DNA of 64,000 nt from a bacterium (lineage in GTDB: Bacteria; Patescibacteriota; Minisyncoccia; Phycocordibacterales; Zambryskibacteraceae), in assembly GCA_030649135.1 (NCBI GenBank), contig JAUSGI010000005.1, forward strand, positions 1 to 64,000, in the 5' to 3' direction. The notes under the pieces are model-generated. The model was given only the letters and a program-made list of their open reading frames with translations. It did not search any database and had not been told where the DNA came from. Positions 8,901 to 33,948 of the stretch are shown here, one piece after another. Made by a program: the position numbers and the translations under genes. Positions within the stretch are counted from its first letter, which is position 1, and the number at the start of each line of letters is the position of its first letter.

Positions 8901-8933
8901 ATATTAAATGATAGCATGACAGAAACTCTGCTG

Positions 8934-17173: not shown

Positions 17174-17192
17174 GTCGACTCCCGGAGTCGAC
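17174..17192. repeat. REP-like palindrome copy 2 (GTCGACTCCCGGAGTCGAC), in frame inside the RAYT ORF
   Basis: Encodes ...RRLPESTDKK... within the transposase. Confidence 0.65.
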
Positions 17193-17642: not shown

Positions 17643-17661
17643 GTCGATTCCCGGAGTCGAC
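17643..17661. repeat. REP-like palindrome copy 3 (GTCGATTCCCGGAGTCGAC) at the 3' end of the RAYT ORF
   Basis: Lies 10 bp before the RAYT stop and the overlapping rsmA start. Confidence 0.65.
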
Positions 17662-17669
17662 AAGGCGAT

Positions 17670-18455: not shown

Positions 18456-18825
18456 TACCAACTTTGCCCATGAGACCGAAGGACGGCCAGACTATGCATT
18501 CTTCTTCAAGAATCATCCAGCAAGCCTGAACCCCCGGGGTGTAATCCCCCAGATGCCAGGTACCAGAGACGCCGATCTCGTAATAACCATAGAGAATAGT
18601 GGAGTAAGGGGAATAGACCATGGGGCCGGTAATCACTACCGGCCCACCCAAGTAAAGCGGAGAAAACCATATCCACATAAAACCGACGGTACAGGTGCAC
18701 TCCATTTCGAAAGAAACGACGCCACCGAAAGGCAGTAACCCTTGAGCCTTAGCTGGCGAGGTTGGCAAAAACAACCCTACGAGAGTGAGAGAAATGACGA
18801 GTGTAATTAGTTGCTTCCTTTTCAT
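18433..18825 (-). CDS. hypothetical secreted protein
   Basis: 130 aa; signal peptide (LITLVISLTLVGLFLPTSPAKA); Cys/Trp/Tyr-rich. Confidence 0.45.
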   Translation of the reverse strand: MKRKQLITLVISLTLVGLFLPTSPAKAQGLLPFGGVVSFEMECTCTVGFMWIWFSPLYLGGPVVITGPMVYSPYSTILYGYYEIGVSGTWHLGDYTPGVQACWMILEEECIVWPSFGLMGKVGTNQSTGG

Positions 18826-19817
18826 ATTATTATTTCGAGCTTATACGGTTCCCTATTGATACCGTGTTCGTTCTTAACGTAAATCCAGAGCGGTGCTTGA
18901 TAACCGCCACGGGTAAACTGCTTGATTTTATCGTACATGGAAAGCTCTGTGATGCGGAAAGTTAGAGTAGCGCCATTGGAAGATACCGGACCGGATAAAT
19001 TACCGAGAGTGGTAATGATTTTGTTCGCGGCGGTAAAACCACTACCAACGAGAGTGACCGTCCCATCCATAGCAGAAGCACTTTCTATTGTTGGCCCCGG
19101 CTGGGGTTGACTTGTAACCTTGATGGCAATTTTAATCGCGGGGTTATCAGAAGAGCCTAATGTGTTGGACACAGAGAGTCTGTATTCGCCCTCGGAAAGA
19201 CCGGCGGGTACAAACATTTCGATATTAGTGCCATCCGTGGATACGGCGGTAGCGAGCTGGCTACCGTTAAAATAAATTTTATTGAGAGTTTTGCTGAAGC
19301 CGGAACCGTCAAGCACAAGGGTGTCGCCAGACCGCACCTCAAATGGCGAGGCGCGGAAAAGCATCACCTGGTCAACTCTCATACCGGGCGCGGCAAGAGT
19401 GTCGGCTTCAACGCTCGGCAAGAAACTGAACGAGGTGGGCACCACGGGCACGGGCGCTGGATTTACGGGAGTAGCGGCAACCGGCGCCGATGTGGTCAGC
19501 TTAGTATTAAAAGCTTGGCGCGAAATCGGACCGAAGTAACCAACTGCCGGAGCAATACCGTGAGCACTCTGCCATCCTGCTACCGCTCCTCTAGTCAAAT
19601 AACCGAAATAACCATAAGAGACGCCCGCCGGCATCTGTAGGTAACCTTTTACTACGAGAAACTGCTGGAGAAGAACGACATCAGCGCCCCTGCTTCCAAT
19701 GGTTAGGTTGGTAGTAAACGTCTCGGCATCTACTGGAGTCGCCAGAACGCCGAGAGCCAATATTATGGCAAGTAGAACCGAGGGAAAAAAGAATCGCATA
19801 TCCTCAATTATACACAA
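18822..19817 (-). CDS. secreted protein with peptidoglycan-binding-like domain
   Basis: 331 aa; signal peptide; GSRGADVVLLQQFLVVKGYL... resembles a PG_binding_1 domain; Ig-like C-terminal region. Confidence 0.55.
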   Translation of the reverse strand: MCIIEDMRFFFPSVLLAIILALGVLATPVDAETFTTNLTIGSRGADVVLLQQFLVVKGYLQMPAGVSYGYFGYLTRGAVAGWQSAHGIAPAVGYFGPISRQAFNTKLTTSAPVAATPVNPAPVPVVPTSFSFLPSVEADTLAAPGMRVDQVMLFRASPFEVRSGDTLVLDGSGFSKTLNKIYFNGSQLATAVSTDGTNIEMFVPAGLSEGEYRLSVSNTLGSSDNPAIKIAIKVTSQPQPGPTIESASAMDGTVTLVGSGFTAANKIITTLGNLSGPVSSNGATLTFRITELSMYDKIKQFTRGGYQAPLWIYVKNEHGINREPYKLEIII

Positions 19818-19850: not shown

Positions 19851-20639
19851 ATGTCGCGAATCCCGTTTATCAGCGCGCTCTCCATTTCTGTCGCTCTTAT
19901 TGGTGGAGCGCTGTGGGTTAGATTCTTCCCGACCAACCTACCGCCCGCTCAAATAGCCTCCGTTCCGGCAAGCGGGCAACTTTCATCTGCAGATACTTTC
20001 GTGGAAGACTTTTATGATGCCGGGGCTTCTCTACCCAGGGCATCAACCAGTACACTATCCCAAGCAGACTTGCTTGGCCGGCGACTGTTTACAGATTTTA
20101 TGTCGCTTAAATCGCAAGGCCAGACCTCTTCAGACAATATTACCGCTTTAGCCGATAAATATGCGGAGAGTATCAAGAATACCGAAATATCGACACCTAA
20201 AGTAAACCTAAGCCAAATTGTCGTCATTCCTAATTCTGTGGAAAATCTGACCAGTTATGGCAACTCCATGATAAATATCCGTAATAGGTATAAAAACCTT
20301 GTAGCTGCCCAAGATAACGGTGGAAATATTGCGGACATTACCGGCCCAGCCTTCTCGACCTTTATGGGCTCGGTTGGAAAGTTATACCAAGCATCAGCCA
20401 ATGAGCTTCTGACCATCGAAGTACCCGAGTCACTTGTTTCAAACCACATGGCCATCATCAATAGCTATCTGGAAAGCGCTAAGGTCATGAAATTACTAAG
20501 CGACACCGCTAAAGACCCGTTGCAAGCATATGCGGCGCTAAACATTTATGCCCAGAACACCGGACAGGAATCCGAGTTTCTGCTGAACATTCAAAAAACC
20601 CTAATGGCCAATGGTATAATTTCTGGTAGCAGCATATGA
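19851..20639 (+). CDS. hypothetical secreted protein (first gene of the T4SS-like cluster)
   Basis: 262 aa; N-terminal signal/TM segment. Confidence 0.5.
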   Translation: MSRIPFISALSISVALIGGALWVRFFPTNLPPAQIASVPASGQLSSADTFVEDFYDAGASLPRASTSTLSQADLLGRRLFTDFMSLKSQGQTSSDNITALADKYAESIKNTEISTPKVNLSQIVVIPNSVENLTSYGNSMINIRNRYKNLVAAQDNGGNIADITGPAFSTFMGSVGKLYQASANELLTIEVPESLVSNHMAIINSYLESAKVMKLLSDTAKDPLQAYAALNIYAQNTGQESEFLLNIQKTLMANGIISGSSI

Positions 20640-22015
20640 ACTACCGCAATCATATCTTAGCTATTGGCTTCATTGTCCTTGCGCTCATCTCTGTCTTACC
20701 CAATAGAGTCATGGCGGTAGATTCTGTCTCCCCGATCCCGGTTGCAGATTCTATCGTGCGGGACAAAGAAGCGGGGTTAACTATTTTCGGCTATACCATC
20801 CCGGGTCTAACTTGGGATAGTATAGCCATAGCTCTAGCGAAAGTAGTATTGGAAAAAATATTCCAAGCTACCACAGATTGGGTTAAAAGCGGCTTTGAAG
20901 GCAATCCGGCTTATGCGACCGACCCGGCACAATTTTTCACCAATATTGCAGACGGTATTGCGGGAGACTTTATCGGGGGTTCGGATCTTGCGTTCTTATG
21001 TTCGCCGTTTCAGGTGAAAATCAGACTTGCTCTGCAGAGATACCATACTCAAAGGCGGCAATTCCAGTGTACTTTGACAGGCATAGTAAAGAATATGGAC
21101 GCTTTCTATAACGACTTCAGCCAAGGGGGGTGGAACGGATGGTTCTCTATGACTCAAAACGATAATAATAACCCTTATGGATCCTTTCTTAAGGCGCAAG
21201 TTGAACTCGACTATCGTATCGCAAAAGCCCTGAGTATTAAGGATAAACAACTTAGTTGGGATAGCGGGTTCTTAGGCTGGTCTGAATGTATCAGAAAAGA
21301 TGACGAAAATGGGGAATGTTATGAACGCGGACCAACAAAAACGCCAGGGAAAGTCATTGAGAGTCAGTTCAACGGTAACCTAGGAAGCGCAGTGAGACAA
21401 CTTGAGCTCGCAGACGAATTTGATGAATTGCTTACTGCTTTGGCCGCACAGCTCTTGAAACAGGCCGTAGATGCTGTATTTACTAAAAAAGGTCTCTTCA
21501 ATGAAGGAGGTGGTCCTCCTCCGGTTCCTGTAGCTTTAGGCATTTCTAAATTAGGTACCGGCGCAGGTACCGTGACCTCAAACCCTGGGGGGATAAACTG
21601 CGGCTCGGCATGCTTTGACACCTACAGACTCGGCGCATCAGTCACTCTTACAGCAATACCATCTGCTGGCTCAATCTTTAGTGGTTGGCCGGGAGCATGC
21701 TTCGGCCTAGGCACTTGTGAGGTAACCATGAATACAGATAGGGACATAACGGCCATGTTTGATTTGAGTATGGCCCTAAGTATTGTCAGATCCGGCACCG
21801 GTTCAGGCACGGTAACTTCAGTCCCCGCAGGTATTAATTGTGGCCTTGCCTGTCGAGCCATTTATCCAGCCGATTCATCAGTCATTATCACTGCCGCGCC
21901 AGCTTCCGGCTCGACCTTTGTCAACTGGTCTGGGGGAGGATGCCGCGACGTAGGGCGCACTTGTGTGGTGCGCATGAGCGTGGACAGAGATATAACGGCC
22001 GAATTCGCTAGATGA
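20636..22015 (+). CDS. secreted protein with two C-terminal InlB-B-repeat-like domains
   Basis: 459 aa; signal peptide; tandem about 75-aa repeats GTGAGTVTSNPGGINCGSAC...SGWPGAC..C.V.M..DRDITA.F. Confidence 0.55.
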   Translation: MNYRNHILAIGFIVLALISVLPNRVMAVDSVSPIPVADSIVRDKEAGLTIFGYTIPGLTWDSIAIALAKVVLEKIFQATTDWVKSGFEGNPAYATDPAQFFTNIADGIAGDFIGGSDLAFLCSPFQVKIRLALQRYHTQRRQFQCTLTGIVKNMDAFYNDFSQGGWNGWFSMTQNDNNNPYGSFLKAQVELDYRIAKALSIKDKQLSWDSGFLGWSECIRKDDENGECYERGPTKTPGKVIESQFNGNLGSAVRQLELADEFDELLTALAAQLLKQAVDAVFTKKGLFNEGGGPPPVPVALGISKLGTGAGTVTSNPGGINCGSACFDTYRLGASVTLTAIPSAGSIFSGWPGACFGLGTCEVTMNTDRDITAMFDLSMALSIVRSGTGSGTVTSVPAGINCGLACRAIYPADSSVIITAAPASGSTFVNWSGGGCRDVGRTCVVRMSVDRDITAEFAR

Positions 22016-24189
22016 AAAAATACTTTCCACATATTTCCGCTTTCATTCTCACCTTAGTACTTGTCTTCGCGATGAGTGGATTTCTTTTTCCTCAAATTGT
22101 GCACGCCGGCGTTTGGGATGTTTTGGAGTGTACAGTATCTCCTTTGGATTGTGCACTAAGAAATTTCGTTAGTTTTGTAGTGGGTATGATTTTAAAATTG
22201 GTTAGTTTGCTCACTGGTTTGGCTGGTATTATTTTGAACGGAGTTATCTTCTATACAGTTGTTGACGTATCTAACAACTATGCCAAGATTCCGGCCATTA
22301 GCAAAGCTTGGGAAGTCATTCGAGACGTTGCCAATATGGGTTTCATTTTTGTCTTGCTTTACGCGGCCATAAAAACAATATTGGGTATCGGTAGTGATGT
22401 CAAAAAACTTATCGTCAACATTATTGTGGTCGCAATCCTCATAAACTTCAGCCTCTTCTTCACCAAAATAGTCATAGATATATCCAACATTTTAGCTCTA
22501 TTCTTCTATGAGGCCATAGCACCGGGAGCCCTGGAGTCTACAAATATCTTAGAGCAGGCCGGCCTTTCAAATGCTTTTATGCAATACCTGAGTCTTCAGA
22601 GTCTTTACAAAGTTGCCGAGATTAAAGGCTTAATGCCTATAATCACTATAGGCATAATGGGCTCCATCATGCTTCTTATTGCCTCTTTCATCTTTTTCGC
22701 CGTAGCAATTATGTTTATCATCCGCTATGTCGTTCTGATTTTAGTGCTCATCCTCTCTCCCATAGCATTTATGTCATTTGTCCTGCCTGAACTCAAAAAA
22801 TATAGAGACCAGTGGTGGAATGCTCTGTCTGGTCAGGCATTCTTCGCACCCATATACTTCATGCTTACTTGGGTAACCCTTGTTGTATTGGGAGGTGTTA
22901 TAAAGGCAAGCTCGTTTGGCGAAGTGGATAAAACAACAGATGCCCTAGGTAATCTAGTCCTGACGGATAATGGGTTAACCTCCCTGTCGGGTGGAGCTTT
23001 CGCCATGTTCATAAACTTCGTCGTTATTATTGTCTTTCTCATTACTTCTCTCATCATCGCCAAAGAATGGTCCAATAAAGCCGGTCCGGGGGTATCGGGT
23101 CTCACCAAGTGGGCCATGGGCGCCGCCGGCGGGGCGACACTTGGTATGGCGGGTAGGTTTGGGAGGGGAACAATTGGTAGGGCGGGAAGTGCCTTGGGAG
23201 AGAGTGAGGAACTGAAGGCGCGGGCAGCACAGGGAGGTATGGGAGGCATGGCAGCTCGATTAGCTTTGGCAACTGGACGAAGAACTGGTAAAGCAAGTTT
23301 TGATGTACGAGGTACTCCTATCGGAGGACAATTAGACGCCGGCAAAGCTCAGAAAGGTGGATTTGCCCAAGTCCTGAAAGACAGAAATAAAAAAGAGAAA
23401 GAATTTGCGGATTCTCTTGGCCCGTCAGATGCACTCATTGCTGAGAAAGAAAGAGCGATGGAACGAATTGCTGCTACTGAAAGAGCGGCAGGAAGAAGAC
23501 CGGAAGGAAGTACTGAGTGGTTAGCGGCTCGTGGAGAGGTTGACAAAATGAAAGGTGTAGATGAAAAAGAGGCAATCAAAAGAATAAGAGACGAGGCAAG
23601 AAGAGTGGGAGAAGAAATGTCTGAAGAAGAAGCTAGGAGAGTAGTAAATGAAGATAGGGACAGATTTGTTATAAAATCTATAAAAGACGAGCGCAAAGAA
23701 GAACGCGTAGAAAGTTTGGAAAGAAGCCCAACTTATATGGCCGCAGAAACCCTTGAGGCGGGTGGCAGAAGGATTGCTGAAACAAGGCCCGCACAAGCCA
23801 TAACCAGAGCAGCGGGTAGAACAGCCCAACTGCTTACTGGAGCTGGGGAGAAGGCAAGTGGAGCAATCGCAAATGTTACCGATATGAGGGGCTTGAGAAC
23901 GGTGGGAAGATGGGCTGGTGGGGCGGTCAGAGGTGTAATCAACGCCCCGGCTGAAGCAACGCGTACGGCAGTAGGAGCTGTACGCGAAATTCCTAATATG
24001 ATTAAAGCCAAGAATCGTGCAGCTATTGCAGAAATCAGAAAAGGCAAAAAACCAGTCAAGGATCAACTACAGGAAATATTAGAAGCGGAAGGCGAACGCC
24101 CAACAGGCGGAGCAGGTGCAACGCCAACAGGAAATGTACCAACCGGAGATGCGACCGCAACACCCGGAGGAACACCTCCTACGGCATAA
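22012..24189 (+). CDS. VirB6/TrbL-like polytopic membrane protein with long charged C-terminal extension
   Basis: 725 aa; about 7 predicted TM helices in the first ~350 aa, then a Gly-rich and Arg/Glu-rich coiled-coil tail. This layout is typical of T4SS VirB6/TrbL proteins. Confidence 0.55.
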   Translation: MKKYFPHISAFILTLVLVFAMSGFLFPQIVHAGVWDVLECTVSPLDCALRNFVSFVVGMILKLVSLLTGLAGIILNGVIFYTVVDVSNNYAKIPAISKAWEVIRDVANMGFIFVLLYAAIKTILGIGSDVKKLIVNIIVVAILINFSLFFTKIVIDISNILALFFYEAIAPGALESTNILEQAGLSNAFMQYLSLQSLYKVAEIKGLMPIITIGIMGSIMLLIASFIFFAVAIMFIIRYVVLILVLILSPIAFMSFVLPELKKYRDQWWNALSGQAFFAPIYFMLTWVTLVVLGGVIKASSFGEVDKTTDALGNLVLTDNGLTSLSGGAFAMFINFVVIIVFLITSLIIAKEWSNKAGPGVSGLTKWAMGAAGGATLGMAGRFGRGTIGRAGSALGESEELKARAAQGGMGGMAARLALATGRRTGKASFDVRGTPIGGQLDAGKAQKGGFAQVLKDRNKKEKEFADSLGPSDALIAEKERAMERIAATERAAGRRPEGSTEWLAARGEVDKMKGVDEKEAIKRIRDEARRVGEEMSEEEARRVVNEDRDRFVIKSIKDERKEERVESLERSPTYMAAETLEAGGRRIAETRPAQAITRAAGRTAQLLTGAGEKASGAIANVTDMRGLRTVGRWAGGAVRGVINAPAEATRTAVGAVREIPNMIKAKNRAAIAEIRKGKKPVKDQLQEILEAEGERPTGGAGATPTGNVPTGDATATPGGTPPTA

Positions 24190-24202
24190 CAAATCAATTA
24201 TT

Positions 24203-25096
24203 ATGGAGGAAGATAAAATCTTACAGGAACAAATAAAAAATGCCCCGACGGAAATAAAAAACCTCCTGACAAAAGGGGACTGGTCTATTGTGGTTAGCCA
24301 GATATCCCGAAAGAATAATTTCTCTCATGAGCAGACAGTAGCCCTCGAAAATGAAGTGTTATTCGTGTTACTTAGCATGGAGCTCTCCAAAGATTTGGTG
24401 AGAAATATGCAGGATGTGTTAGAAGTTCAGGAGAGTGTCTCACAAGAAATCGCACGAGAGGTTAATGAAAAAATATTCAAGGAAGTAGAACCGTTTCTCC
24501 CGACATCGTCGGAAGATTCGAACTTAATCGAAAGTCTGCATGATGAAAATAGCGCGGAGAATATTCGTCAGATTTTGAAAGCCAATACCGGAGAAGACAG
24601 AGACAAACTGATAGCAAACCAACTCAAGAAACTGCCGGAAGCACTCCAGCAAGCTATTCGAGTGGTACCTTGGAAATCTGTGGTCAAGGAGATTGCCCTT
24701 CTCAATAAACTGGACCTCGCTCAAATTGTGGCAGTCGAGAGGGAAACTATGTTCGTCATTTACGGCTTTGAGGACGAGAAAAACTATCTCTCCAACGTCA
24801 TGAGAGAGGCGAAACTTGATGAAGCAATGGCCACCACCATCACTGCCGCCCTGAACGAAAGGGTATTTAAAGTCATAGTCAACAAAGTCAACGAATCTGG
24901 ACCCGCATCGCAAAATGCCGCCACCAACGTGCCGGAAATTCCTCCGGCTAACCTGCCCATGATTGAAAAGGGAGAAGTAGTGCATGATGCGGCGCCAACG
25001 GTCACGAAAGAGATAAAAATTGAAAAGTCGAAAGTCTCTTTGCCAGACTATCGTTATCCTAATGGTAAAGACCCATATCGCGAACCGTTGGTATAA
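24203..25096 (+). CDS. hypothetical protein (T4SS-like cluster)
   Basis: About 297 aa from MEEDKIL; the ORF-track start at 24116 overlaps the previous gene by 74 nt. No TM segment; helical. Confidence 0.45.
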   Translation: MEEDKILQEQIKNAPTEIKNLLTKGDWSIVVSQISRKNNFSHEQTVALENEVLFVLLSMELSKDLVRNMQDVLEVQESVSQEIAREVNEKIFKEVEPFLPTSSEDSNLIESLHDENSAENIRQILKANTGEDRDKLIANQLKKLPEALQQAIRVVPWKSVVKEIALLNKLDLAQIVAVERETMFVIYGFEDEKNYLSNVMREAKLDEAMATTITAALNERVFKVIVNKVNESGPASQNAATNVPEIPPANLPMIEKGEVVHDAAPTVTKEIKIEKSKVSLPDYRYPNGKDPYREPLV

Positions 25097-25108
25097 AATA
25101 AAAACACA

Positions 25109-25549
25109 ATGCGTTTCCAAGTTCCTCAATTCATAGAAATAGAAGACAAGATTTTCGGCCCTTTGACTTTCAAACAGTTCATTTACATTGCGGGTGGAGT
25201 GGGTGTTGCTGTCATGCTTTTTGTCTTCCTGCCGAAATTTTTGGCCGCTCTCGTTGCTCTGCCGGTGGTGCTCTTCGGCGCAGCATTGGCTTTTTACAGA
25301 CTCAACGGTAAACCCTTCGTGAACGTAGTCGAGGCTTTTGTGAAATACACCTTCACCAGCAAACTTTATATTTGGAAAAAGGAGGAAAAGCAAGTGATAA
25401 GCAATCAACCCCAAATGGACAGGAAACCGATTGAACAGGTGTATGTTCCAAAACTTTCCGGCTCAAAGCTGAAAGAACTTACTTGGAGCCTAGATATCAA
25501 AGAGGCTACCAATCCGGTAACCTCAAACGAGGACAAGTCTAGTGTATAA
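25109..25549 (+). CDS. small two-TM membrane protein (VirB3-like candidate)
   Basis: 146 aa; paired hydrophobic helices (FIYIAGGVGVAVMLFVFLP...LVALPVVLFGAALAFY). Confidence 0.4.
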   Translation: MRFQVPQFIEIEDKIFGPLTFKQFIYIAGGVGVAVMLFVFLPKFLAALVALPVVLFGAALAFYRLNGKPFVNVVEAFVKYTFTSKLYIWKKEEKQVISNQPQMDRKPIEQVYVPKLSGSKLKELTWSLDIKEATNPVTSNEDKSSV

Positions 25550-25556
25550 TTAGCAA

Positions 25557-26198
25557 ATGTCTCCGAGTACAAATGCTACTCAAGAATTTGTTCCCATCAA
25601 GGAAGTGCGCGACGGCGTCGTCCTACTGAAAGATGGCGGCATGCGTGCCATTCTCTTGTGTTCGTCTCTAAACTTCGCGCTTAAATCCGAGGATGAGAGG
25701 CAGGCTATTCTTCTGCAGTTCCAGGATTTTCTTAACTCCCTAGACTTCTCGATTGAGATAGTAGTGCAGTCGCGCAAACTCGATATCCGGCCATACATAG
25801 CGCTACTCGAAGGGCAAGAAAAAATACAAACCAACAGTCTGATGAAAATACAGGTTCGAGAGTATATTGAGTTTATCAAGAGTTTCACCGAAAACACGAA
25901 TATCATGACTAAAAACTTTTTCATTGTGGTGCCATACAGTCCGGCCATGTTGAATGCCCATAAATCAGGGGGTATCGTCTCGCGCCTTGGATTCGGTACC
26001 AAGAGAGAGCGCGCGGCCGCCACAGAAGCGGGATTTGACGAAAATCGTAGCCAACTGGAAGAGCGGCTATCGGTGGTTGAACAGGGACTTATCCGTACCG
26101 GTATCCGCGTGGTGCGCCTCGGCACGGAAGAAGTCATTGAACTTTTTTACAAGGCCTTTAATCCGGGGGAAACGGAAAAGCCACTAAAAGTGAGCTAG
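25557..26198 (+). CDS. hypothetical protein (T4SS-like cluster)
   Basis: 213 aa; no recognisable motif. Confidence 0.45.
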   Translation: MSPSTNATQEFVPIKEVRDGVVLLKDGGMRAILLCSSLNFALKSEDERQAILLQFQDFLNSLDFSIEIVVQSRKLDIRPYIALLEGQEKIQTNSLMKIQVREYIEFIKSFTENTNIMTKNFFIVVPYSPAMLNAHKSGGIVSRLGFGTKRERAAATEAGFDENRSQLEERLSVVEQGLIRTGIRVVRLGTEEVIELFYKAFNPGETEKPLKVS

Positions 26199-26245
26199 CT
26201 CACTTTTAGTGGCTTTATTCACAATAGATAATTAACAATTTACAA

Positions 26246-26605
26246 GTGAAACAATTCAATTTCTTGGATTGGCCGGTGTATAAAGATGCGCAAGAATTAG
26301 TCTCTTTTTCATTAGAAATAGTAAGGAAATTACCAAAAGAACACCGGTTTGAGTTAAGTTCACAATTGATTAGATCTAGTTCTTCAGTCGTTTTAAATAT
26401 AGCAGAGGGAAGCGGTAAGTCATCTAGGAGAGACTTTTCTCATTTTATTGATATAGCACTGGGTTCTCTCTATGAAACTGTTGCGAACATGGATATTCTA
26501 AAGACAAACCAGCTAATCAACAATACAGACTTTGAACTAGCCAAGGAAAAGGCTGCGAGTATCGCTAGACAACTAGGCGGCTTTAGGAAAAAGCTCAAAA
26601 CATGA
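26246..26605 (+). CDS. four-helix-bundle protein (23S rRNA intervening-sequence protein / Avd-like family)
   Basis: 119 aa; PKEHRFELSSQLIRSSSSVVLNIAEGSGKSSRRDFSHFIDIALGSLYET is the hallmark of the TIGR02436-type family. Confidence 0.8.
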   Translation: MKQFNFLDWPVYKDAQELVSFSLEIVRKLPKEHRFELSSQLIRSSSSVVLNIAEGSGKSSRRDFSHFIDIALGSLYETVANMDILKTNQLINNTDFELAKEKAASIARQLGGFRKKLKT

Positions 26606-26633
26606 CTCAAATTCACCTATTGTTTATTGTTCA

Positions 26634-28529
26634 TTGTTCATTGATAATTACTATATGAGTATTCTCGATAAATTATTTGGAAAGGGGGGAGCAAAAAAGC
26701 CGGATATTTCTTCTATCTTGCCTCAAGAAATTTTTGAAGCGGGGCTACTTGAACTCAAAGATATTATCGCGCCTTCCGCACTCAAGATTACCCCGAAAGA
26801 AATCAATCTGGGCGAGAAAATTTTACGAAGCTTCTTCGTAATTTCCTATCCGCGCTTTCTTTCTGAAGGATGGTTCTCGCCCATTATCAATATGGATAAG
26901 GTTTTCGATATTTCTATTTTTATTCACCCCATCGAAACTTCGAGGGTGTTACGCCAATTCCAAAGAAAGGTAGCCGAGGTTCAAAGCCAAATCCATAGCC
27001 GGGAAGAAAAGGGTTTGGTGCGTGACCCGATGCTTGACGTCGCTTACCAGGACCTTGAGAATTTGCGTGACCAACTCCAGCAAGCGCAAGAGAAACTCTT
27101 CGATGTCGGCCTCTATATAACCATCTATGGCGACAGCGACTCGGAACTTGATAAAGCGGAATCCGAAATCAAATCAATTCTTGAGGCCAAACTTATATAC
27201 GTCAAGCCCGCACTCTTTCAACAGGAACAGGGATATAAAAGCACTCTTCCTCTCGGCAACGACCTTCTGGAAGTGCACTCAAAATTGAATTCTTCTCCGC
27301 TCTCATCTCTCTTCCCATTTACTTCGTTTGACCTCACTTCCGACAAAGGCATTCTCTACGGCATCAATAGGCACAACTCGTCTCTGGTGCTTTTCGACCG
27401 CTTCTCGCTTGAAAATTATAATTCCATCATGTTCGCCAAATCCGGAGCCGGTAAATCTTATGCCACCAAACTCGAGATTTTGCGTACCCTGATGTTTGAT
27501 ACGGAGGTGATAGTGATAGACCCGGAGCGAGAGTACGAATATATGGCAGAAGCTACCGGAGGGAGATACTTCAAAATTTCTCTTAATTCCGAGCACCACA
27601 TTAACCCGTTTGATTTGCCCGTACCGGGGCCGGACGAAAGCGCCGCCAACGTGCTTCGCTCAAATATCATCAACTTAGTCGGCCTCTTTCGCCTGATGAT
27701 GGGCGGTCTCTCCGCGGAAGAGGATGCCATCATCGACCGAGCTATTACCGAAACTTATGCTCTAAAGGATATTACGGTGGAATCGGATTTTCGCACCATT
27801 GAGCCCCCACTCATGTCAGATTTTGAAATGGTACTCATCGGCATGGAAGGCGGCGAATCTCTAGCTCAACGTCTTTCCAAATATACCAAGGGCACTTGGT
27901 CAGGATTTATCAATAGACCTTCTAATGTCGATATCAACAGAAAATTCGTGGTCTTTTCACTGCGCGACATGGAAGATGAGCTTAAGCCCATCGCTATGTA
28001 CATTGTCACTCATTACATTTGGAATGCCATCCGCAAAGAACTAAAGAAGCGTCTACTTGTTATCGATGAGGCATGGTGGATGATGAAGTCGGAAGATACA
28101 GCTTCATTCCTCATGGGTCTGGTCAAGCGCGGCCGTAAATATTTCCTTGGAGTAGCCACCATTACCCAAGATGTCGGGGACTTCTTGAAAAGCCCCTACG
28201 GCTTGCCAATTATCACCAACTCCTCCATCCAGATTCTTTTGAAACAATCGCCGACAACTATAGGCGAACTCCAGAAAACTTTTAATCTTACAGATGAGGA
28301 GAAGTATCTCTTGCTCGAATCAGACAGGGGAGAGGGCATCTTCTTCGCCGGCCTCAAGCACGTGGCAATTAAAAATATTGCCTCATATACGGAAGACCAA
28401 ATTATCACTTCCGACCCATCTCAAGTTTTGGCCATCAAGAAAGCCAAACAAGACGCCATGGAAGATAAGGAGGTCGCCTTGAAAGCCGCGAGCGCTGAAT
28501 TGAAAGAAGCTGAAACAACAAACACATAA
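26634..28529 (+). CDS. VirB4/TrbE/TraC-like type IV secretion ATPase
   Basis: 631 aa; Walker A FAKSGAGKSYATK; Walker B/DEAW region (LLVIDEAWWMM) of VirB4-family ATPases. Confidence 0.8.
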   Translation: MFIDNYYMSILDKLFGKGGAKKPDISSILPQEIFEAGLLELKDIIAPSALKITPKEINLGEKILRSFFVISYPRFLSEGWFSPIINMDKVFDISIFIHPIETSRVLRQFQRKVAEVQSQIHSREEKGLVRDPMLDVAYQDLENLRDQLQQAQEKLFDVGLYITIYGDSDSELDKAESEIKSILEAKLIYVKPALFQQEQGYKSTLPLGNDLLEVHSKLNSSPLSSLFPFTSFDLTSDKGILYGINRHNSSLVLFDRFSLENYNSIMFAKSGAGKSYATKLEILRTLMFDTEVIVIDPEREYEYMAEATGGRYFKISLNSEHHINPFDLPVPGPDESAANVLRSNIINLVGLFRLMMGGLSAEEDAIIDRAITETYALKDITVESDFRTIEPPLMSDFEMVLIGMEGGESLAQRLSKYTKGTWSGFINRPSNVDINRKFVVFSLRDMEDELKPIAMYIVTHYIWNAIRKELKKRLLVIDEAWWMMKSEDTASFLMGLVKRGRKYFLGVATITQDVGDFLKSPYGLPIITNSSIQILLKQSPTTIGELQKTFNLTDEEKYLLLESDRGEGIFFAGLKHVAIKNIASYTEDQIITSDPSQVLAIKKAKQDAMEDKEVALKAASAELKEAETTNT

Positions 28530-29050
28530 TGCCAGAAGCAAATCAAATACTAGATTTCAATACTTTTCGACAAAGAAGACTGGCTAAAATCCAGAAAGAA
28601 ACTGCTGATATTACCCAAAAAATGGAGAAGAGAAATAGGGTTAAGACCTCAGATATCATTCTTATGGTGGGTACTGCTCTCTTTTTCGACAGTATTCAGG
28701 CTTTATTTCTCTTGATTCCATTTTTGGGATGGGCACTGTCTTCCTTAATCTCAATATATGCTTGGCTAACTTTTTACGTCTGGACGTCTGTTAAGGGATG
28801 GGGGGTAGTATCAGATACAGTCAAGAAAGCAATCGTCCCTAAAGGTAAAATCGTAAAATTTATTATTAAGTGGCTTACACCGTTAATAGAACTTATTCCG
28901 GTAGTAAACGTAATCCCAACTTGGACAGTTTCGATTATTCTGCAACTGTTACTTATTAAAGCCGAGGATGTCCTTTATAACACTACCGAAGGAAAGGTCG
29001 ACCTCGAAAAACTGGGAGAACTTTATAAACAATATAGAAAAGTTGCCTAG
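28529..29050 (+). CDS. hypothetical membrane protein (T4SS-like cluster)
   Basis: 173 aa with several hydrophobic helices. Confidence 0.45.
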   Translation: MPEANQILDFNTFRQRRLAKIQKETADITQKMEKRNRVKTSDIILMVGTALFFDSIQALFLLIPFLGWALSSLISIYAWLTFYVWTSVKGWGVVSDTVKKAIVPKGKIVKFIIKWLTPLIELIPVVNVIPTWTVSIILQLLLIKAEDVLYNTTEGKVDLEKLGELYKQYRKVA

Positions 29051-29067
29051 GGTATATAATAAGGAAA

Positions 29068-29765
29068 TGAAAAAGTACCACCTTCTCTTAGTTACTCTTG
29101 TACTCATCACGCCCGTTTTCTATTCACAGGCGCAAACGGTGGATATCCTCTGGCAGGGACAAACTTACACCTCGCCTTTCTACAAAGGTAAATCACTATG
29201 GTCTAGCCAGTCCAGAATTACCTTCTTGGCCATACCGCACGGTACCGGTACTGGTAACCCAGCAAGCCTTATCTATAAGTGGTCTAAGAATGGCACGGTG
29301 CTCGGTAATATCAATGGTGTGGGCAAAAACACCATGGTTTACACTGACTTAATCCTTTCCAAACCCCAAACTGTCAAGATAGACGTCCTCTCTCCTGACG
29401 AGGGCCTCCTGGCCAGTGCGTCAGTTGCTGTCACCCCGATATCTCCAATTCTCGCTATTTATGAAAACAACCCGCTGTATGGATTTATGTTCCACAAAGA
29501 AACCAGCGGGACACATGAACTTCAAAATAAGGAAGCTACTTTCACGGCATTTCCTCTTTTCTTCAGCGTTTCCAATCGTATGGATAGCGGCCTGAAATAT
29601 GAGTGGCGTACCAATGACGGGGGAGTAGAAACCAGTAACTCAGTGACATACCGAGTGCCGGATGATACCCCGGGCACATCCGCGGTCGCGGTGGAGGTCT
29701 CTAACATAAACAAGATTATGCAGAGCTCCAATAAGAGTTTCTTGATACAATTTGGAAAGCAATAA
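29068..29765 (+). CDS. hypothetical secreted protein
   Basis: About 232 aa from MKKYHLLLVTLVLITPVFYSQAQ (signal peptide); the ORF track begins earlier, at 28968. Confidence 0.5.
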
Positions 29766-29766
29766 G

Positions 29767-30183
29767 ATGAAGAGCTTTGCTACTTACTGTCTGATACTTG
29801 TCGCCCTTGTCTTGATTCCTGTTTCTGTTCCTGTGCTTACCAAAGCGGAAACCGAATACACGCTTCTTCAACCTCTCCCCCTTTACGGTCTGGATACAGT
29901 AGATCAGGAGAAAACGACCGCTGAACAATACATTGAAGGCATTGTTACCTTAACTATTGCCATAGCCGGGGGGCTTGCGGTGATTATGATTATTTACGGT
30001 GGCATCAAATATATGTCGAGTGATGCAATCGGAGGGAAAGGTGAGGCCAAGGATATTATCCAAAACGCCATATGGGGGCTCCTTCTAACCATCAGCGCAT
30101 GGCTCATTCTTTATACTATTAATCCAGATTTGATAGAATTTAATTTAGACCTCCCCACTCCGGATAAAATCAATAACCCTTAA
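29767..30183 (+). CDS. VirB2/TrbC-like pilin candidate
   Basis: About 138 aa; signal peptide followed by two hydrophobic helices separated by a short loop (TLTIAIAGGLAVIMIIYGGIKYM...IWGLLLTISAWLILY), as in T4SS pilins. Confidence 0.5.
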   Translation: MKSFATYCLILVALVLIPVSVPVLTKAETEYTLLQPLPLYGLDTVDQEKTTAEQYIEGIVTLTIAIAGGLAVIMIIYGGIKYMSSDAIGGKGEAKDIIQNAIWGLLLTISAWLILYTINPDLIEFNLDLPTPDKINNP

Positions 30184-31406
30184 TGAAAAAAATTTTAATC
30201 ATCTTAGTAGCAATTATCGCAATCACTCTAGCCGTTTTCTTTGGGTGGTATTTGTTCTTCCAAAATTCCGATATGCCCGTAGGAGAGGTGGTTAGAAATG
30301 TTTTGCCATTCGGTTCCGGTGGAGATACTTCCTTACCAGTGAACCTGCCGGGTGGAAACGAGCAATTGCCTAATGGACAACAACTGCCGGCAGACGAGTT
30401 TGCCAGACCAAATGCCAAACTCTTCCGCATTGCCGATACCCCCATAGCCGGTGCGGTAGTATTTAAAAGAGGAAACCAAACGGTCGTACGCTACGTTGAC
30501 CGCGCCACAGGACATATCTATGATGCCGATTTGGCAACGCTCGAGAAGGTAAAGGTGTCCAACAACACCCTGCCCAAAATTTACGAGGCCTATTTCAGAA
30601 CAGACGGCAACGCAGTACTTCTCCGGTCTCTCAAGGACAACTCCGATGTGGTAGAAAATTTATCTCTCACCCTTACTCCTCCCCAATCATCGAGCACCCT
30701 ATACGCCATCTCATCTACAGCCCTACGCGGTAACATTGGAGCTGTCGCTGTGGGTTCCGGCAACACCCTCGTATACACTCTGCGAGACACCGCTACCGTG
30801 GTTGCTTCGGCCTTCAATGGCACCGGGGCCAGAATCCTACTTACCTCACCCTTCACAGACTGGCGACTGGCATCGGCCGGAAACAGTTTAGTGCTATACA
30901 CGAAAGCAAGTGTTAATGCGCCAGGTTATGCCTACGCCCTAAACACGTCCGGCGGGGCATTAAAAAAAGTTATTGGACCGCTCAACGGATTGGTAGCTCT
31001 GCCCGATAGTTCCGGCAATCGAGTACTGTATTCATATGTCGAGAATAACAAGACAAAATTGGTGACTAAGAATCTTACCAATAATATCGTTTCCGAAATA
31101 TCCCCCGTCACATTGGCTGAAAAATGTCTTTGGAGTATAAGAAACGCAGGCATCCTTTTCTGTGCCGCGCCCACTGACAACTTGGGACCTGACGAACCTG
31201 ATAGTTGGTACAGGGGAGTAACGCACTTCTCCGACCGTATTTGGCTCTTTGACACCAAAAGCGGAGTGTCCCAAGTCTTGGTAGAACCAAAGCAGAGCCT
31301 CGATACGGAGCTTGACGCGGTAGACCTAAAACTTTCCCCCAGCGAAGACTATCTCGTTTTCACAAATAGAACCGACCTCTCACTTTGGGCACTTAGACTT
31401 GAGTAG
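30183..31406 (+). CDS. hypothetical membrane-anchored protein, beta-rich (last gene of the cluster)
   Basis: 407 aa; N-terminal TM helix; Ser/Thr/Gly-rich beta-propeller-like body. Confidence 0.5.
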   Translation: MKKILIILVAIIAITLAVFFGWYLFFQNSDMPVGEVVRNVLPFGSGGDTSLPVNLPGGNEQLPNGQQLPADEFARPNAKLFRIADTPIAGAVVFKRGNQTVVRYVDRATGHIYDADLATLEKVKVSNNTLPKIYEAYFRTDGNAVLLRSLKDNSDVVENLSLTLTPPQSSSTLYAISSTALRGNIGAVAVGSGNTLVYTLRDTATVVASAFNGTGARILLTSPFTDWRLASAGNSLVLYTKASVNAPGYAYALNTSGGALKKVIGPLNGLVALPDSSGNRVLYSYVENNKTKLVTKNLTNNIVSEISPVTLAEKCLWSIRNAGILFCAAPTDNLGPDEPDSWYRGVTHFSDRIWLFDTKSGVSQVLVEPKQSLDTELDAVDLKLSPSEDYLVFTNRTDLSLWALRLE

Positions 31407-32109
31407 CCCTGATGTTTTTCTTGATAAAAAGTTCCTGCCCAATACTGAACAGGTTGGTGGTAAGCCAGTAGAGAGCAATAACTCCGGAAATTTTGTAGGA
31501 AATAAAAAAAACTATCACCGGAAAGAAATATTTCATTTGAGTCTGCATGCTACGGGTAAGATTGTTGCCAAATGAATCTCCTTTTGGCTGAACCTGTCCC
31601 TGCATAGAAAGTTTGAACTGGAAAAAGGTAGAGACGGCGGCCAAAAAAGCGATCACGGCACTTTTGGCCGTGATGTCCAAAAAGCCAAGAAAGGTGGTGC
31701 TAATATGGCTCGGCTCGGTCACGAATGAATATAAAAGGGCGGAGTTAACTTCCGGAAAGTGCAGGAAAATTTGATACAAAGCGAAGATAACGGGAATTTG
31801 GATAATAATGACCAATATGCCCGAGAATGGGTTAACCCCTTTTTCTCTGTATAGAGCGAGGGTGAGTTTCGCTTGCTCCTCGGCCTTATCTTTATATTGC
31901 TCTTTAATCTTGGCTAAAGCGGGAGCTATTTCTGTCATCTTTGCTTGCGCAAGTACTGCCTTTCTGGAAAGAGGGAAGGTTGCCAAGCGAACTAGAATAG
32001 TGAGGATAATAACCATCACCCCGGCATCGGCCCAGGGCAACACCTTAAACAAAAACATTAAAATATTGTAGAGCGGGTCGAAAAAAAACGTGTGATAGAG
32101 AAAAGACAT
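31393..32109 (-). CDS. yidC: membrane protein insertase YidC (short form)
   Basis: 238 aa; conserved TM2 region (ILTILVRLATFPL) and C-terminal TMs of the YidC/Oxa1 family. Confidence 0.88.
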   Translation of the reverse strand: MSFLYHTFFFDPLYNILMFLFKVLPWADAGVMVIILTILVRLATFPLSRKAVLAQAKMTEIAPALAKIKEQYKDKAEEQAKLTLALYREKGVNPFSGILVIIIQIPVIFALYQIFLHFPEVNSALLYSFVTEPSHISTTFLGFLDITAKSAVIAFLAAVSTFFQFKLSMQGQVQPKGDSFGNNLTRSMQTQMKYFFPVIVFFISYKISGVIALYWLTTNLFSIGQELFIKKNIRATQV

Positions 32110-32118
32110 CGGTTAATT

Positions 32119-32364
32119 TTATCCTTTTTTAAAGAGCTCGGCTAGTTCAGCTTCAAGAGCACGGCCTTTTATTTTTTCAGCCCCAGGTTTGGCAACAATA
32201 AAATATGTAGCGGGTTTTAGATTAGAAATAAATGTGCGTGCAATCGGGCGGACGCGCCGGCGAATTCTATTTCTTATAACGGCCTTTTTGGAAACCTTTT
32301 TAGAAACAGAGATTACTACTTTCACCGCATGGAAAGATTTAATCATTAAATAAAAGTGGTTCAT
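32119..32364 (-). CDS. rnpA: ribonuclease P protein component
   Basis: 81 aa; basic RNR-type motif (VIRNRIRRRVR); translationally coupled (TAATG) to rpmH upstream. Confidence 0.75.
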   Translation of the reverse strand: MNHFYLMIKSFHAVKVVISVSKKVSKKAVIRNRIRRRVRPIARTFISNLKPATYFIVAKPGAEKIKGRALEAELAELFKKG

Positions 32365-32498
32365 TAGACGGCTAAACGCTTGCGACCCTTGCGGCGTCTA
32401 TTCCTGATAGTTCTCCTGCCGGTAGACGTTTTTTGCCTCGAGAGAAACCCGTGAGTTCTGGCTCGCTTGCGCCTTTTTGGTTTGTATGTTGTGGACAT
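32364..32498 (-). CDS. rpmH: 50S ribosomal protein L34
   Basis: Manually translated 44 aa: MSTTYKPKRRKRARTHGFLSRQKTSTGRRTIRNRRRKGRKRLAV. Not in the ORF track (under 60 aa). Confidence 0.85.
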   Translation of the reverse strand: MSTTYKPKRRKRARTHGFLSRQKTSTGRRTIRNRRRKGRKRLAV

Positions 32499-32513
32499 CT
32501 TTTTCTTAACAGG

Positions 32514-32533
32514 TTATAAACACATTATAAACA
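32514..32533 (+). promoter_or_regulatory. tandem DnaA-box-like 9-mers (TTATAAACA x2) in the rpmH/dnaA intergenic region
   Basis: Two direct copies of TTATAAACA (2 mismatches from TTATCCACA) between divergent rpmH and dnaA. Confidence 0.4.
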
Positions 32534-32601
32534 TTTTTCGAGTCTTTAACAAGTTTTTATCATACTCCAAAAAGATATACTATGTGAACCTTACAAACTC
32601 T

Positions 32602-33948
32602 ATGGACTATAAACAACTTTGGCAAAGCGTTTTGGTGGAAATCGAGTTAACTGTCTCCAGCGCCAACTTTGCCACTTGGTTTAAGGATACTCGTATTGTT
32701 AAAGAAGATAGCGGGGTAGTGGTGCTCTCCGTGCCAAACGCCTTTGTGAAAGAGTGGCTCCTGACCAAATACCACAGTACCATCCTTAGAAGTCTAAGGA
32801 ATCTTGAAACTTCTGTCCACGCTGTCGAGTATGTGGTAAACAAAGAGGAAACCCGCAAAAGAGAGGAGAGACCGAGCGAGGCAACTCTTTATACCAAAGA
32901 GCTTCCCCTACCGGAAACCCAGGTGAATAGGGACGACAACTTAAACCCGCGCTACACATTCGAGACCTTTGTCGTAGGCCCGTTCAACGAGCTGGCCCAC
33001 GCTGCCGCCCAGGCTGTTATAAAAAAGCCCGGCATTATGTATAACCCACTTTTCATACACGGGGCCACCGGCCACGGCAAAACCCACCTGATTCAAGCAA
33101 TCGGCAACCATATTAAAACAACCAGTCCGGGCAAGAAAGTTTATTACATGACTTCTGAGCAATTCGGACAAGACTGTATGAACGCTCTCCAACACCAAAA
33201 AATGACCATTTTTAAGGAAAAATACCGCAAATATGACGTCCTCATTGTTGACGATATTCAATTTTTCTCGGATAAACAGAAGTTTCAAGAAGAATTGTTC
33301 CATCTGTTTAACACTCTTTACGACAACAACAGACAAATCATCTTTTCTTCCGACAAACACCCCTATTTTATTACCGGACTGGAAGAGCGATTGAAGTCAC
33401 GGCTTTCTGCCGGTATGACCGTTGACATTCCGGCGCCCGATAAAGAATCGAGGATAGCTATTATCTCCGCCAAAGCACTCCAGCAGAACATCCCTCTGAC
33501 ACCGGAAATCATAGACTACCTCGCCCACACTATAAACGGCAATATCAGGGACCTAGAGGGGGCCGTTAATACTCTGCTATGCCATGCCCAACTCAAAAGT
33601 AGAGAAATATCAATGATTGACGTCAGAAATTACATCAAGAACAATGTTAAGCCCAAGAAAACCATCGCCGTCAAGGACGTGGTCAGGATTGTTTCCGACT
33701 TTTACAATATTAAAGAAGACAGTATTTACGAGAAAACCAGACATAAGGAGGTTATTAGGCCTCGGCAAATTGTTATGTATATCTTGCGTGAGGATTTCAA
33801 CATTTCTTATCCGTCAATAGGCCAAAAACTGGGAGGCAGGGACCACACCACGGTTATCTATTCATGTGAAAAAATAAAGACCGACATCAAAGTGGACCAA
33901 TCCTTACTGGAAGAGGTCGGCCAGATTAGAAATTTATTAACCGTGTAA
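32602..33948 (+). CDS. dnaA: chromosomal replication initiator protein DnaA
   Basis: 448 aa from MDYKQLWQSVL; AAA+ Walker A GATGHGKTHL; C-terminal DNA-binding domain. The ORF-track start at 32467 overlaps rpmH and is rejected. Confidence 0.93.
   Translation: MDYKQLWQSVLVEIELTVSSANFATWFKDTRIVKEDSGVVVLSVPNAFVKEWLLTKYHSTILRSLRNLETSVHAVEYVVNKEETRKREERPSEATLYTKELPLPETQVNRDDNLNPRYTFETFVVGPFNELAHAAAQAVIKKPGIMYNPLFIHGATGHGKTHLIQAIGNHIKTTSPGKKVYYMTSEQFGQDCMNALQHQKMTIFKEKYRKYDVLIVDDIQFFSDKQKFQEELFHLFNTLYDNNRQIIFSSDKHPYFITGLEERLKSRLSAGMTVDIPAPDKESRIAIISAKALQQNIPLTPEIIDYLAHTINGNIRDLEGAVNTLLCHAQLKSREISMIDVRNYIKNNVKPKKTIAVKDVVRIVSDFYNIKEDSIYEKTRHKEVIRPRQIVMYILREDFNISYPSIGQKLGGRDHTTVIYSCEKIKTDIKVDQSLLEEVGQIRNLLTV

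Follow-up and report, generated by a model that had tools for sequence, protein, structure and literature searches.

A Patescibacteria-type type IV secretion gene cluster beside dnaA in a Zambryskibacteria-like genome, and its probable role in host contact

Patescibacteria make up a large share of bacterial diversity and draw resources from their hosts. Their type IV secretion system (T4SS) belongs to the small number of machines whose necessity for the epibiotic life style has been demonstrated. A gene cluster for such a system lies at positions 19851 to 31406 of the stretch analysed here, called the window, which consists of positions 1-64,000 of contig JAUSGI010000005.1 (assembly GCA_030649135.1) and comes from a Zambryskibacteria-like member of the Paceibacteria. 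Only these 64 kb of the genome were seen. The window offers no new kind of system; it provides a clean and complete Paceibacteria example at the replication origin.

The cluster contains 12 open reading frames (ORFs), all on the + strand and densely packed, with junctions of -14 to +49 nt and the widest gaps on either side of an inserted gene at 26246-26605. An earlier note, made from the DNA letters alone, had described 12 co-directional genes with short or overlapping junctions. The ORF map agrees, except that one of the 12 belongs to an inserted PF05635 cassette and has no secretion role. The G+C content of the cluster (0.42-0.49) is the same as that of its flanks, and a promoter and terminator consensus scan of the cluster gave nothing above shuffle expectation. 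The features, with the gene labels used below, are as follows.

g1, 19851-20639, + strand: first gene; 262 amino acids (aa), N-terminal hydrophobic anchor, helical body
g2, 20636-22015, + strand: secreted modular surface protein; N-domain of about 290 aa containing cysteines, and two C-terminal InlB B-repeat domains
g3, 22012-24189, + strand: VirB6/TrbL-like polytopic membrane protein, 725 aa
g4, 24203-25096, + strand: acidic protein, no signal peptide; helical domain of about 100 aa, variable linker, C-terminal DPYREP
g5, 25109-25549, + strand: PrgI/VirB3-like protein with two transmembrane (TM) helices; PF12666
g6, 25557-26198, + strand: TrsD-like protein, 213 aa; VirB4 N-terminal domain as its own gene
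Palindrome, 26177-26216: perfect, 40 nt, centred on the g6 stop codon
Inserted cassette, 26201-26652, + strand: about 450 nt; holds g7 (26246-26605), a PF05635 four-helix bundle
g8, 26655-28529, + strand: VirB4 ATPase, central and C-terminal P-loop domains
g9, 28529-29050, + strand: 173-aa small membrane protein whose translation is coupled to that of virB4
g10, 29067-29765, + strand: 232 aa, N-terminally anchored or secreted, all-beta, Ig/PKD-like
g11, 29767-30183, + strand: VirB2/TrbC-like pilin; PF18895
g12, 30183-31406, + strand: membrane-anchored extracytoplasmic beta-propeller

Core components of the secretion apparatus

The product of g8 scored 380 bits against the NCBIfam family NF045971 (conju_CD1110; cut-off, 325), with further matches to TIGR00929 (137 bits) and PF19044 (90 bits), and its translation shows a Walker A motif (GAGKS) and a Walker B motif (VIDEAW). 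It is 100% identical to a 624-aa NCBI protein from a metagenome-assembled genome (MAG), here P0002. For the preceding gene, g6, the VirB4 matches are confined to N-terminal stretches of the models (NF045975 VirB4_plasma, 101-233, E of 1e-11; NF045971, 2-118), and there is a match to the TrsD family NF041427. By these matches, VirB4 is encoded in two genes, with g6 supplying the N-terminal part and g8 the rest; the identity of g6 had been missed in the earlier note. A query joining both proteins retrieved one fused 846-aa homologue (P0001) spanning them end to end, while about 120 other homologues among the best matches were split, at 620-630 aa. This fusion, 85% identical to the window's two proteins, lies at 2060-4600 of locus L001 (ENA ERZ1758444, contig NODE_230), in an operon without PF05635 genes; the translation of the locus gene is not an exact match to the database protein. 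The division into a TrsD-like gene and virB4 is usual in this phylum, and the single fused homologue is the exception.

For comparison, 84 related loci were fetched by exact-protein look-ups and from 80 GTDB species representatives, and were compared in a tblastn table. A g6 homologue adjoins virB4 in 81 of the 84, and in the relatives 2-20 nt separate the g6 stop from the virB4 start. Wherever a source was named, the matches among the 120 listed of 8000 scored and the 80 best genome matches came from Patescibacteria or unclassified MAGs. The small membrane protein g5 is PrgI/VirB3 by its match to PF12666 (50.2 bits; cut-off, 27) and was found in 80 of the 84 loci.

The VirB6-like protein g3 required an indirect route, with no direct Pfam match and no significant NCBIfam family. 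Its residues 1-410 form a helical membrane domain with 262 homologues; the roughly 300 aa that come after it are a cytoplasmic tail, charged and of low complexity. One homologue, P0194, which is 48% identical over its full length, passes the PF04610 TrbL/VirB6 threshold (27.3 versus 25.9 bits); another, P0127, scores 19.3 bits. An AlphaFold2 (AF2) model of residues 1-413 (pLDDT, 73) was searched against the PDB with Foldseek, and the six best matches were TrwI/VirB6 chains of the R388 T4SS (probability, 0.97-1.00; E of 3e-3 to 5e-2). A profile of the orthologue alignment searched against PDB sequences gave nothing usable. Because a homologue passes PF04610 and the model best matches TrwI/VirB6, g3 is indirectly supported as VirB6-like.

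The product of g11 matches PF18895 (T4SS_pilin) at 32.8 bits (cut-off, 26.6) and PF04956 (TrbC) weakly. A signal peptide followed by two hydrophobic helices with a charged loop between them gives it the VirB2/TrbC type of architecture. The same gene, of 138 aa and with PF18895, was called on an identical Logan contig, and g11 was found in 73 of the 84 loci. Thus, the VirB4-family ATPase (placed at 26634-28529), the 725-aa VirB6/TrbL-like protein with a long charged tail, the VirB3-sized protein with two TM helices, and the TrbC/VirB2-like pilin candidate named in the earlier note are all upheld, for VirB6 through a homologue and the modelled fold and for the others through family matches.

Conservation beside dnaA and relation to known systems

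The cluster is flanked on both sides by housekeeping genes. RNase Y, ClpP, NusA, ComM, an M23/LysM peptidase, UvrD, and KsgA are encoded upstream (Pfam), and YidC, RnpA, DnaA, DnaN, PBP1, a class I W/Y-type aminoacyl-tRNA synthetase, RuvABC, PilB, and PolA downstream. The stretch from yidC through rnpA and dnaA to dnaN (31393-35256) is the neighbourhood of the chromosomal replication origin. The nearest flanking features are the following.

ksgA, 17670-18455, + strand: upstream (Pfam)
130-aa ORF, 18433-18825, - strand: upstream
Secreted PG_binding_1 and IPT/TIG protein, 18822-19817, - strand: divergent, upstream of the cluster (Pfam)
yidC, 31393-32109, - strand: convergent, downstream of the cluster (Pfam)
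rnpA, 32119-32364, - strand: called on an identical Logan contig
dnaA, 32467-33948, + strand (Pfam)
dnaN, 34153-35256, + strand (Pfam)

The order UvrD-KsgA-[g1 to g12]-YidC-DnaA-DnaN-PBP1 is found wherever a relative's contig is long enough, and KsgA-[cluster]-YidC-RnpA-DnaA-DnaN recurs in most of the 84 loci, 80 of which are different GTDB species, an agreement well beyond coincidence. In 60 loci DnaA was located downstream of the cluster, and in 54 KsgA was located upstream. Across these loci, which were picked by VirB4 similarity, the median identity to the window proteins was highest for VirB4 (82%), followed by TrsD (63%), DnaA (60%), UvrD (55%), PrgI and PBP1 (54% each), KsgA (51%), DnaN (47%), YidC (46%), the pilin g11 (41%), g2 (36%), g10 (33%), g3, g9, and g12 (31% each), and g1 (28%). 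These values point to stronger constraint on the VirB4 motor than on the replication initiator DnaA, with the exposed parts evolving fast. The conserved synteny beside dnaA, the flank-like G+C, and the better conservation of VirB4 than of DnaA argue that the cluster is an old, vertically inherited core apparatus and not an integrated conjugative element. The earlier note had favoured a host- or cell-contact apparatus over a conjugative element and had proposed a comparison across relatives; that comparison showed the cluster order kept in most of the 80 species-level relatives and, with G+C and VirB4 conservation, strengthens the proposal.

Genes for DNA transfer were sought with Pfam scans covering nearly all non-overlapping window ORFs of at least 200 aa and several shorter ones, the unscanned ORFs being short. 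Among the scanned ORFs of the 64-kb window, none encodes a relaxase family and none a VirD4/TcpA-type coupling protein; within the window, P-loop NTPases are limited to VirB4, DnaA, ComM, UvrD, RuvB, and PilB. The statement in the earlier note that the window holds no VirD4 or relaxase stands for the scanned ORFs, and the lack of a type IV coupling protein (T4CP) is claimed for the window only. A cluster accompanied by neither a relaxase nor a T4CP argues against a DNA-export (conjugation) machine.

Systems of this kind have been described in a survey of 3,035 Patescibacteria genomes (PMC12102498; Quinonero-Coronel et al., Microbial Genomics 2025), whose dataset includes Zambryskibacteria genomes. 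Patescibacteria VirB4 proteins formed a monophyletic clade nested in MPF-FATA, TrsD homologues were the commonest VirB4 partner, and PrgI/VirB3, VirB6, and VirB2-like pilins (PF18895) were encoded near virB4. Relaxases were almost absent, VirD4/T4CP homologues were present in most genomes but mostly far from virB4, and the Paceibacteria neighbourhood held dnaA, dnaN, ksgA, rnpA, and rpmH. The window shows the same split VirB4 (TrsD plus VirB4), the same PrgI/VirB3, VirB6, and VirB2-like pilin near virB4, the same lack of a relaxase or nearby T4CP, and the same position beside dnaA, dnaN, ksgA, and rnpA. At every point of comparison the survey agrees with this locus; the gene set, the absence of a relaxase, the location near dnaA, and hence the kind of system had thus already been described in 2025. 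The closest homologues are all from Patescibacteria, in Zambryskibacteria/Parcubacteria MAGs, and the earlier note was correct that similar clusters have been reported for episymbiotic Patescibacteria. Arrays of 2 to 11 pilin genes are common in Saccharimonadia and Microgenomatia, whereas this cluster has a single pilin gene.

Among better-known T4SSs, the cluster shows affinity to the MPF-FATA systems of monoderms, such as CTn2 CD1110, pCF10 Prg/Pcf, and pGO1/pIP501 (TrsD plus TrsE). Shared features are a VirB4 above the CD1110 cut-off, a PrgI-type VirB3, a separate TrsD-like VirB4 N-terminal fragment as in pGO1, and no outer-membrane core components. Unlike these systems, the cluster has no detected relaxase, T4CP, VirB1-like hydrolase, or VirB8-like protein (PrgL/TcpC); its VirB2-like pilin has no counterpart in monoderm conjugation systems; and it is chromosomal and syntenic across species and not on a mobile element. 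With the MPF-T VirB/Trw systems (Agrobacterium tumefaciens VirB, R388 Trw) and DotA of Legionella Dot/Icm, it shares a pilin of VirB2/TrbC architecture and a secreted protein directly upstream of VirB6, where a VirB5-like partner would be expected. It differs in lacking VirB7, VirB9, VirB10, and VirB11, and identity to TrwI is only 11-14%. The T4CP-less DNA uptake systems, Helicobacter pylori ComB and archaeal Ced, likewise have a VirB4-family ATPase with no relaxase or coupling protein and occur in organisms that, like Patescibacteria, must acquire nucleic acid. In contrast to these, the CedB model scores only 37 bits on the window VirB4 (cut-off, 700), no ComB8, ComB9, or ComB10 homologues are present, and uptake by any Patescibacteria T4SS is so far a proposal.

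Taken as a whole, the locus is read, with a probability of roughly 85%, as a Patescibacteria-type T4SS that arose from monoderm MPF-FATA conjugation machinery, gained a VirB2-like pilin, and serves as a host-contact conduit and not for DNA export.

Surface and accessory proteins, and the possible function of the apparatus

The earlier note had seen InlB-B-repeat-like domains in one of the secreted proteins, and these are confirmed in g2, where PF18998 matches two stretches with 61 bits. The N-terminal part of the same protein (window 20636-21535) is an unannotated secreted domain of about 290 aa with conserved cysteines. At E<=1e-3 its family has no fewer than 4570 cluster representatives; the proteins measure 183-1170 aa and always carry the domain at the N-terminus, while the C-termini are swapped among Ig-like, F5/8 type C (discoidin), InlB-B, TIG, PKD, beta-helix, GH5, and SdrD-B modules. 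Swapped C-terminal modules on a constant N-domain are the pattern expected of a host-recognition protein, and g2 is a candidate host-binding adhesin. The g2 gene lies directly upstream of the VirB6-like g3, and the protein is possibly a VirB5-position partner of VirB6. Weak DUF4141 matches occur in the g2 family, in 1 of 30 and in 1 of 50 members, with E of 1e-4 and 6e-5. In Bacteroidetes conjugative transposons, traJ is the VirB6 homologue and TraI the DUF4141 protein. DUF4141 is a domain of a Bacteroidetes conjugative-transposon protein listed beside traJ (PMC10434189), and the matches are a lead to, not a test of, g2 as the VirB5-position partner of VirB6. Profiles of g2 and of the wider g2 family yielded nothing usable against PDB sequences.

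Two further proteins appear to belong to the extracellular side, and direct Pfam and NCBIfam scans found no significant family in either. For g10, present in 79 of the 84 loci, an orthologue profile gave weak matches in the PDB to Hoc, an Ig-type antigen receptor, and PKD, and family members match BiPBP_C, Ig_3, and PKD_3 weakly, suggesting an Ig-like surface component. The structures of the 22012-24189 and 30183-31406 products, singled out in the earlier note for prediction, were modelled; the first is the VirB6-like fold of g3 and the second, g12, a beta-propeller. The AF2 model of g12 (pLDDT, 83.5; pTM, 0.78) consists of a single N-terminal TM helix joined by about 45 disordered linker residues to the propeller, which Foldseek matched to generic propellers including TolB and WD40 (E of about 1e-9). 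One g12 homologue carries PF00930 (DPPIV_N), and g12 was found in 67 of the 84 loci.

The remaining genes are less conserved or lack family matches. Positional orthologues of g1 occur in 23-29 of the 84 loci at about 28% identity; no Pfam or NCBIfam match was found for g1, and its orthologue profile found nothing significant in the PDB. For g9, which was recognised in 30 of the 84 loci with identity near 31% and was called as a 173-aa gene on the identical Logan contig, Pfam and NCBIfam matches were all subthreshold. The start of g4 is uncertain, as the ORF opens with GTG at 24116 and the first ATG is at 24203, and no Pfam or NCBIfam family matches its product. In an alignment of 27 positional orthologues, D291, Y293, R294, and E295 are invariant and P292 nearly so. 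The DPYREP motif is the extreme C-terminus in all 27, preceded by a hypervariable linker, and the N-terminal helical domain (about 100 aa) has undergone duplication in this genome. A docking or cytoplasmic adaptor subunit is proposed for g4. The conserved accessory set (g1, the g2 N-domain, the g4 DPYREP protein, g10, and g12) is not named in PMC12102498. Of these, all but g1 are targets whose study could reveal host recognition and the transported substrate.

Homology identifies the two-polypeptide VirB4 (g6 and g8) as the membrane-associated ATPase, held at the membrane by the VirB3/PrgI protein g5, and the fold of the VirB6-like g3 identifies it as the membrane platform or channel. In the proposed mechanism, the pilin g11 would be pulled from the membrane and polymerised into a pilus on the g3 platform. 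Domains and position suggest that g2, g10, and g12 may build and decorate the extracellular part and contact the host cell, with the pilus decorated by or tipped with the modular g2, and that g4 may act as the cytoplasmic adaptor.

Evidence that such an apparatus matters comes from transposon sequencing (Tn-seq) of 'Ca. Southlakia epibionticum' ML1. According to PMC12857230 and PMC11665869, which summarise Wang et al. 2023, the T4SS and its pilin array are essential in this organism and comEC is dispensable; PMC12102498 likewise reports from that study that the homologous genes are essential for epibiotic growth, and adds that the T4CP gene was not found essential. T4SS function is stated to be unknown in PMC12857230 and PMC11665869, where effector delivery or nucleic-acid acquisition is proposed. 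A 2026 preprint (bioRxiv 10.64898/2026.06.21.733656) reports tubular structures, possibly T4SS pili, at the parasite-host interface, together with acquisition of host RNA. The apparatus in the window is judged to be a host-contact conduit that would be essential for the epibiotic life style. Its most likely single direction is judged to be T4CP-independent uptake of host macromolecules, nucleic acids first, a tentative inference to which we give somewhat less than an even chance.

Several points weigh against reading the cluster as an essential host-contact conduit. Essentiality was shown in Saccharimonadia, a different class, and the requirement for epibiotic growth is known only for ML1. Neither direction nor substrate can be read from the sequence. 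Genes for a T4CP or a relaxase could be present outside the 64 kb seen. The VirB6 call is indirect, with no direct Pfam match and Foldseek E values of only 3e-3 to 5e-2. Pfam and NCBIfam searches of g1, g4, g9, g10, and g12 recognised no VirB8-like (PrgL/TcpC) or VirB1-like protein in the cluster; these five proteins have no T4SS family assignment, and their membership rests on conserved position only. An M23/LysM peptidase is encoded at 13968-14915, 5 kb upstream of the cluster. Selection of loci by VirB4 similarity may also slightly inflate the contrast between VirB4 and DnaA.

Export in the opposite direction, in which the apparatus would deliver proteins or toxins into the host bacterium for nutrient release, like pathogen T4SSs, is rather unlikely. 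Effector delivery is a speculation cited in PMC11665869, T4CP-less exporters exist in Bordetella Ptl and Brucella VirB (PMC12102498), and several secreted proteins are encoded in the cluster. However, these proteins, with their Sec-type signals or anchors, look structural or adhesive, no candidate with a recognisable toxin or enzyme domain was found in or beside the cluster by Pfam and NCBIfam, and the scanned ORFs of the window include no T4CP to recruit cytoplasmic substrates.

An organelle for adhesion only, with the VirB4/VirB6/VirB3 core merely assembling a VirB2-type pilus with a modular tip adhesin and translocating nothing, is considered quite improbable. VirB4 does drive pilus biogenesis (PMC12102498), and the pilin and the variable adhesin-like modules are the fastest-evolving parts, but type IV pili for attachment are also encoded (PilB, 44561-46243, - strand; PilM/PilN fusion, 60767-62326, + strand), and the extreme conservation of VirB4 together with the essentiality of its homologues suggests more than adhesion. 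The T2SSE PilB-like ATPase and the PilM/PilN fusion indicate a pilus system separate from the T4SS pilin.

An integrated conjugative element or its remnant, still transferring DNA with a relaxase and coupling protein encoded elsewhere, is barely credible and already largely refuted: the best VirB4 family match is the conjugative-transposon family CD1110 and the window has a tyrosine recombinase (8934-9872), an IS200-like gene (17020-17673), and an IS1595 transposase (39745-40614), but the recombinase is 10 kb away with housekeeping genes (NYN, ComM, M23 peptidase, UvrD, KsgA) in between, the chromosomal position is shared by most of the 80 species-level relatives, cluster and flanks have equal G+C, VirB4 is more conserved than DnaA, and relaxases are rare in the phylum (109 in 3,035 genomes; PMC12102498). 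Synteny also led to rejection of the three mobile-element genes as signs of such an element.

Within the host-contact conduit reading, a more specific and unlikely version can be formulated for Paceibacteria. In it, the g2 N-domain would dock on VirB6 and form, with g10, g12, and the DPYREP adaptor, an extracellular module that sets host range on a T4CP-less uptake pilus for host nucleic acids, while PF05635 cassettes, each with its own upstream hairpin and outward -10 box and so sparing operon expression, would repeatedly colonise the operon. Such an extracellular module would be one not described before.

Inserted cassettes and other features of the window

The gene between trsD and virB4, g7, matches PF05635 ('23S rRNA intervening sequence protein') with 96.7 bits, and the cassette carrying it is an insert and not a T4SS component. 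In insert-free relatives the trsD/virB4 junction reads '...GTGAGC TAG CT ATG AGT ATT...', and in the window about 450 nt are inserted exactly there, with boundaries defined by alignment with the insert-free loci L005, L006, and L007. A virB4 gene split by the insertion was rejected, because the insert-free relatives already have trsD and virB4 as separate genes, 2-20 nt apart and in different frames. An intron or intein was likewise rejected, as there is no Rfam intron match, only about 90 nt are non-coding, the frame differs, and stops are present.

Cassettes of this type are not confined to the window. One to three PF05635 genes lie inside the operon in 17 of the 84 loci, always in operon orientation and always at gene junctions, namely, those between g4 and prgI, prgI and trsD, and trsD and virB4 (the last in 6 of 84). 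Examples are found in L002 (7635-8000, 8488-8847, and 9577-9936), L009 (4423-4782), L059 (9619-9990), and others. PF05635 proteins at different sites share only 31-62% identity, a divergence suggesting that the insertions happened repeatedly and independently.

On either side of most cassettes lie inverted arms made of reiterated CA-rich and GT-rich sequence (duplex energies, -25 to -46 kcal/mol; z, -3 to -6). In the window the arms, at 26217-26245 and 26620-26648, are imperfect inverted repeats, and the cassette RNA folds (z, -4.2) with a long-range stem enclosing the ORF, the same architecture as in rRNA intervening sequences (IVSs). The palindrome at 26177-26216 (20 + 20 nt, 100% complementary) forms the 5' hairpin in this fold, its left arm coinciding with the 3' end of g6 and its right arm with the insert's opening 15-20 nt. 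A hairpin over the 3' end of the upstream gene or just past it is present in 11 of 22 cassettes, and L059 has a 48-nt palindrome. In the cassette subfamily nearest to that of the window, the terminal sequence is (G)GTTATAAT, and 7-8 nt separate it from the following start codon; the window has GATAAT, with 7 nt left to the virB4 ATG. This arrangement suggests an outward promoter for a leaderless downstream message. On sequence features, the cassettes look like IVS-like selfish elements with their own terminator hairpin and outward promoter. PF05635 genes are not mentioned in the main text or two of the supplementary files of PMC12102498, and the IVS-like cassettes colonising the operon look newer than the secretion system's published description.

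A second feature that looks newer is a strongly structured non-coding region with flanking hammerheads, about 2.4 kb long (approximately 5300-7700), between nusA and a TrmB-like gene. Its G+C is 0.52-0.64, and no credible long ORF was found in it under any stop-codon reassignment. Two subthreshold type III hammerhead matches lie on the - strand, at 6133-6187 (42.7 bits; U at position 9 of the core) and at 7299-7353 (30.7 bits; intact CUGAUGA...GAAAC core); the distance between their predicted cleavage sites is 1166 nt. The unit of this length has a folding energy of -544 kcal/mol, compared to -439.5 +/- 10 for dinucleotide shuffles (z, -10.4), and sliding 300-nt windows across the region gave z of -2.5 to -10.7, compared to -0.1 to -1.8 for four coding controls. 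With blastn, only 45 nt of a hammerhead core matched among phages and nothing among plasmids; an exact-pattern scan of metagenome contigs found nothing, and exact-protein look-ups of the neighbouring genes yielded a single short contig, derived from this sample. A same-sample Logan contig has its end within the region, near 7464. One possibility is that the region gives a large structured RNA, perhaps circular, that is processed by ribozymes; another is that it belongs to a small integrated element beside the tyrosine recombinase.

A TrmB-like regulator and this recombinase (Phage_integrase plus SAM-like N-domain) adjoin the region at 8160-9872 (- strand). The recognisable transposase genes of the otherwise housekeeping window are the IS200-like Y1 transposase at 17020-17673 (+ strand), between uvrD and ksgA, and the IS1595-family (ISXO2-like) transposase at 39745-40614 (- strand), between the class I W/Y-type tRNA synthetase gene and ruvC. 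Sequences similar to the IS200-like transposase gene are present in 5 of the 84 relatives, in one of them elsewhere in the locus.

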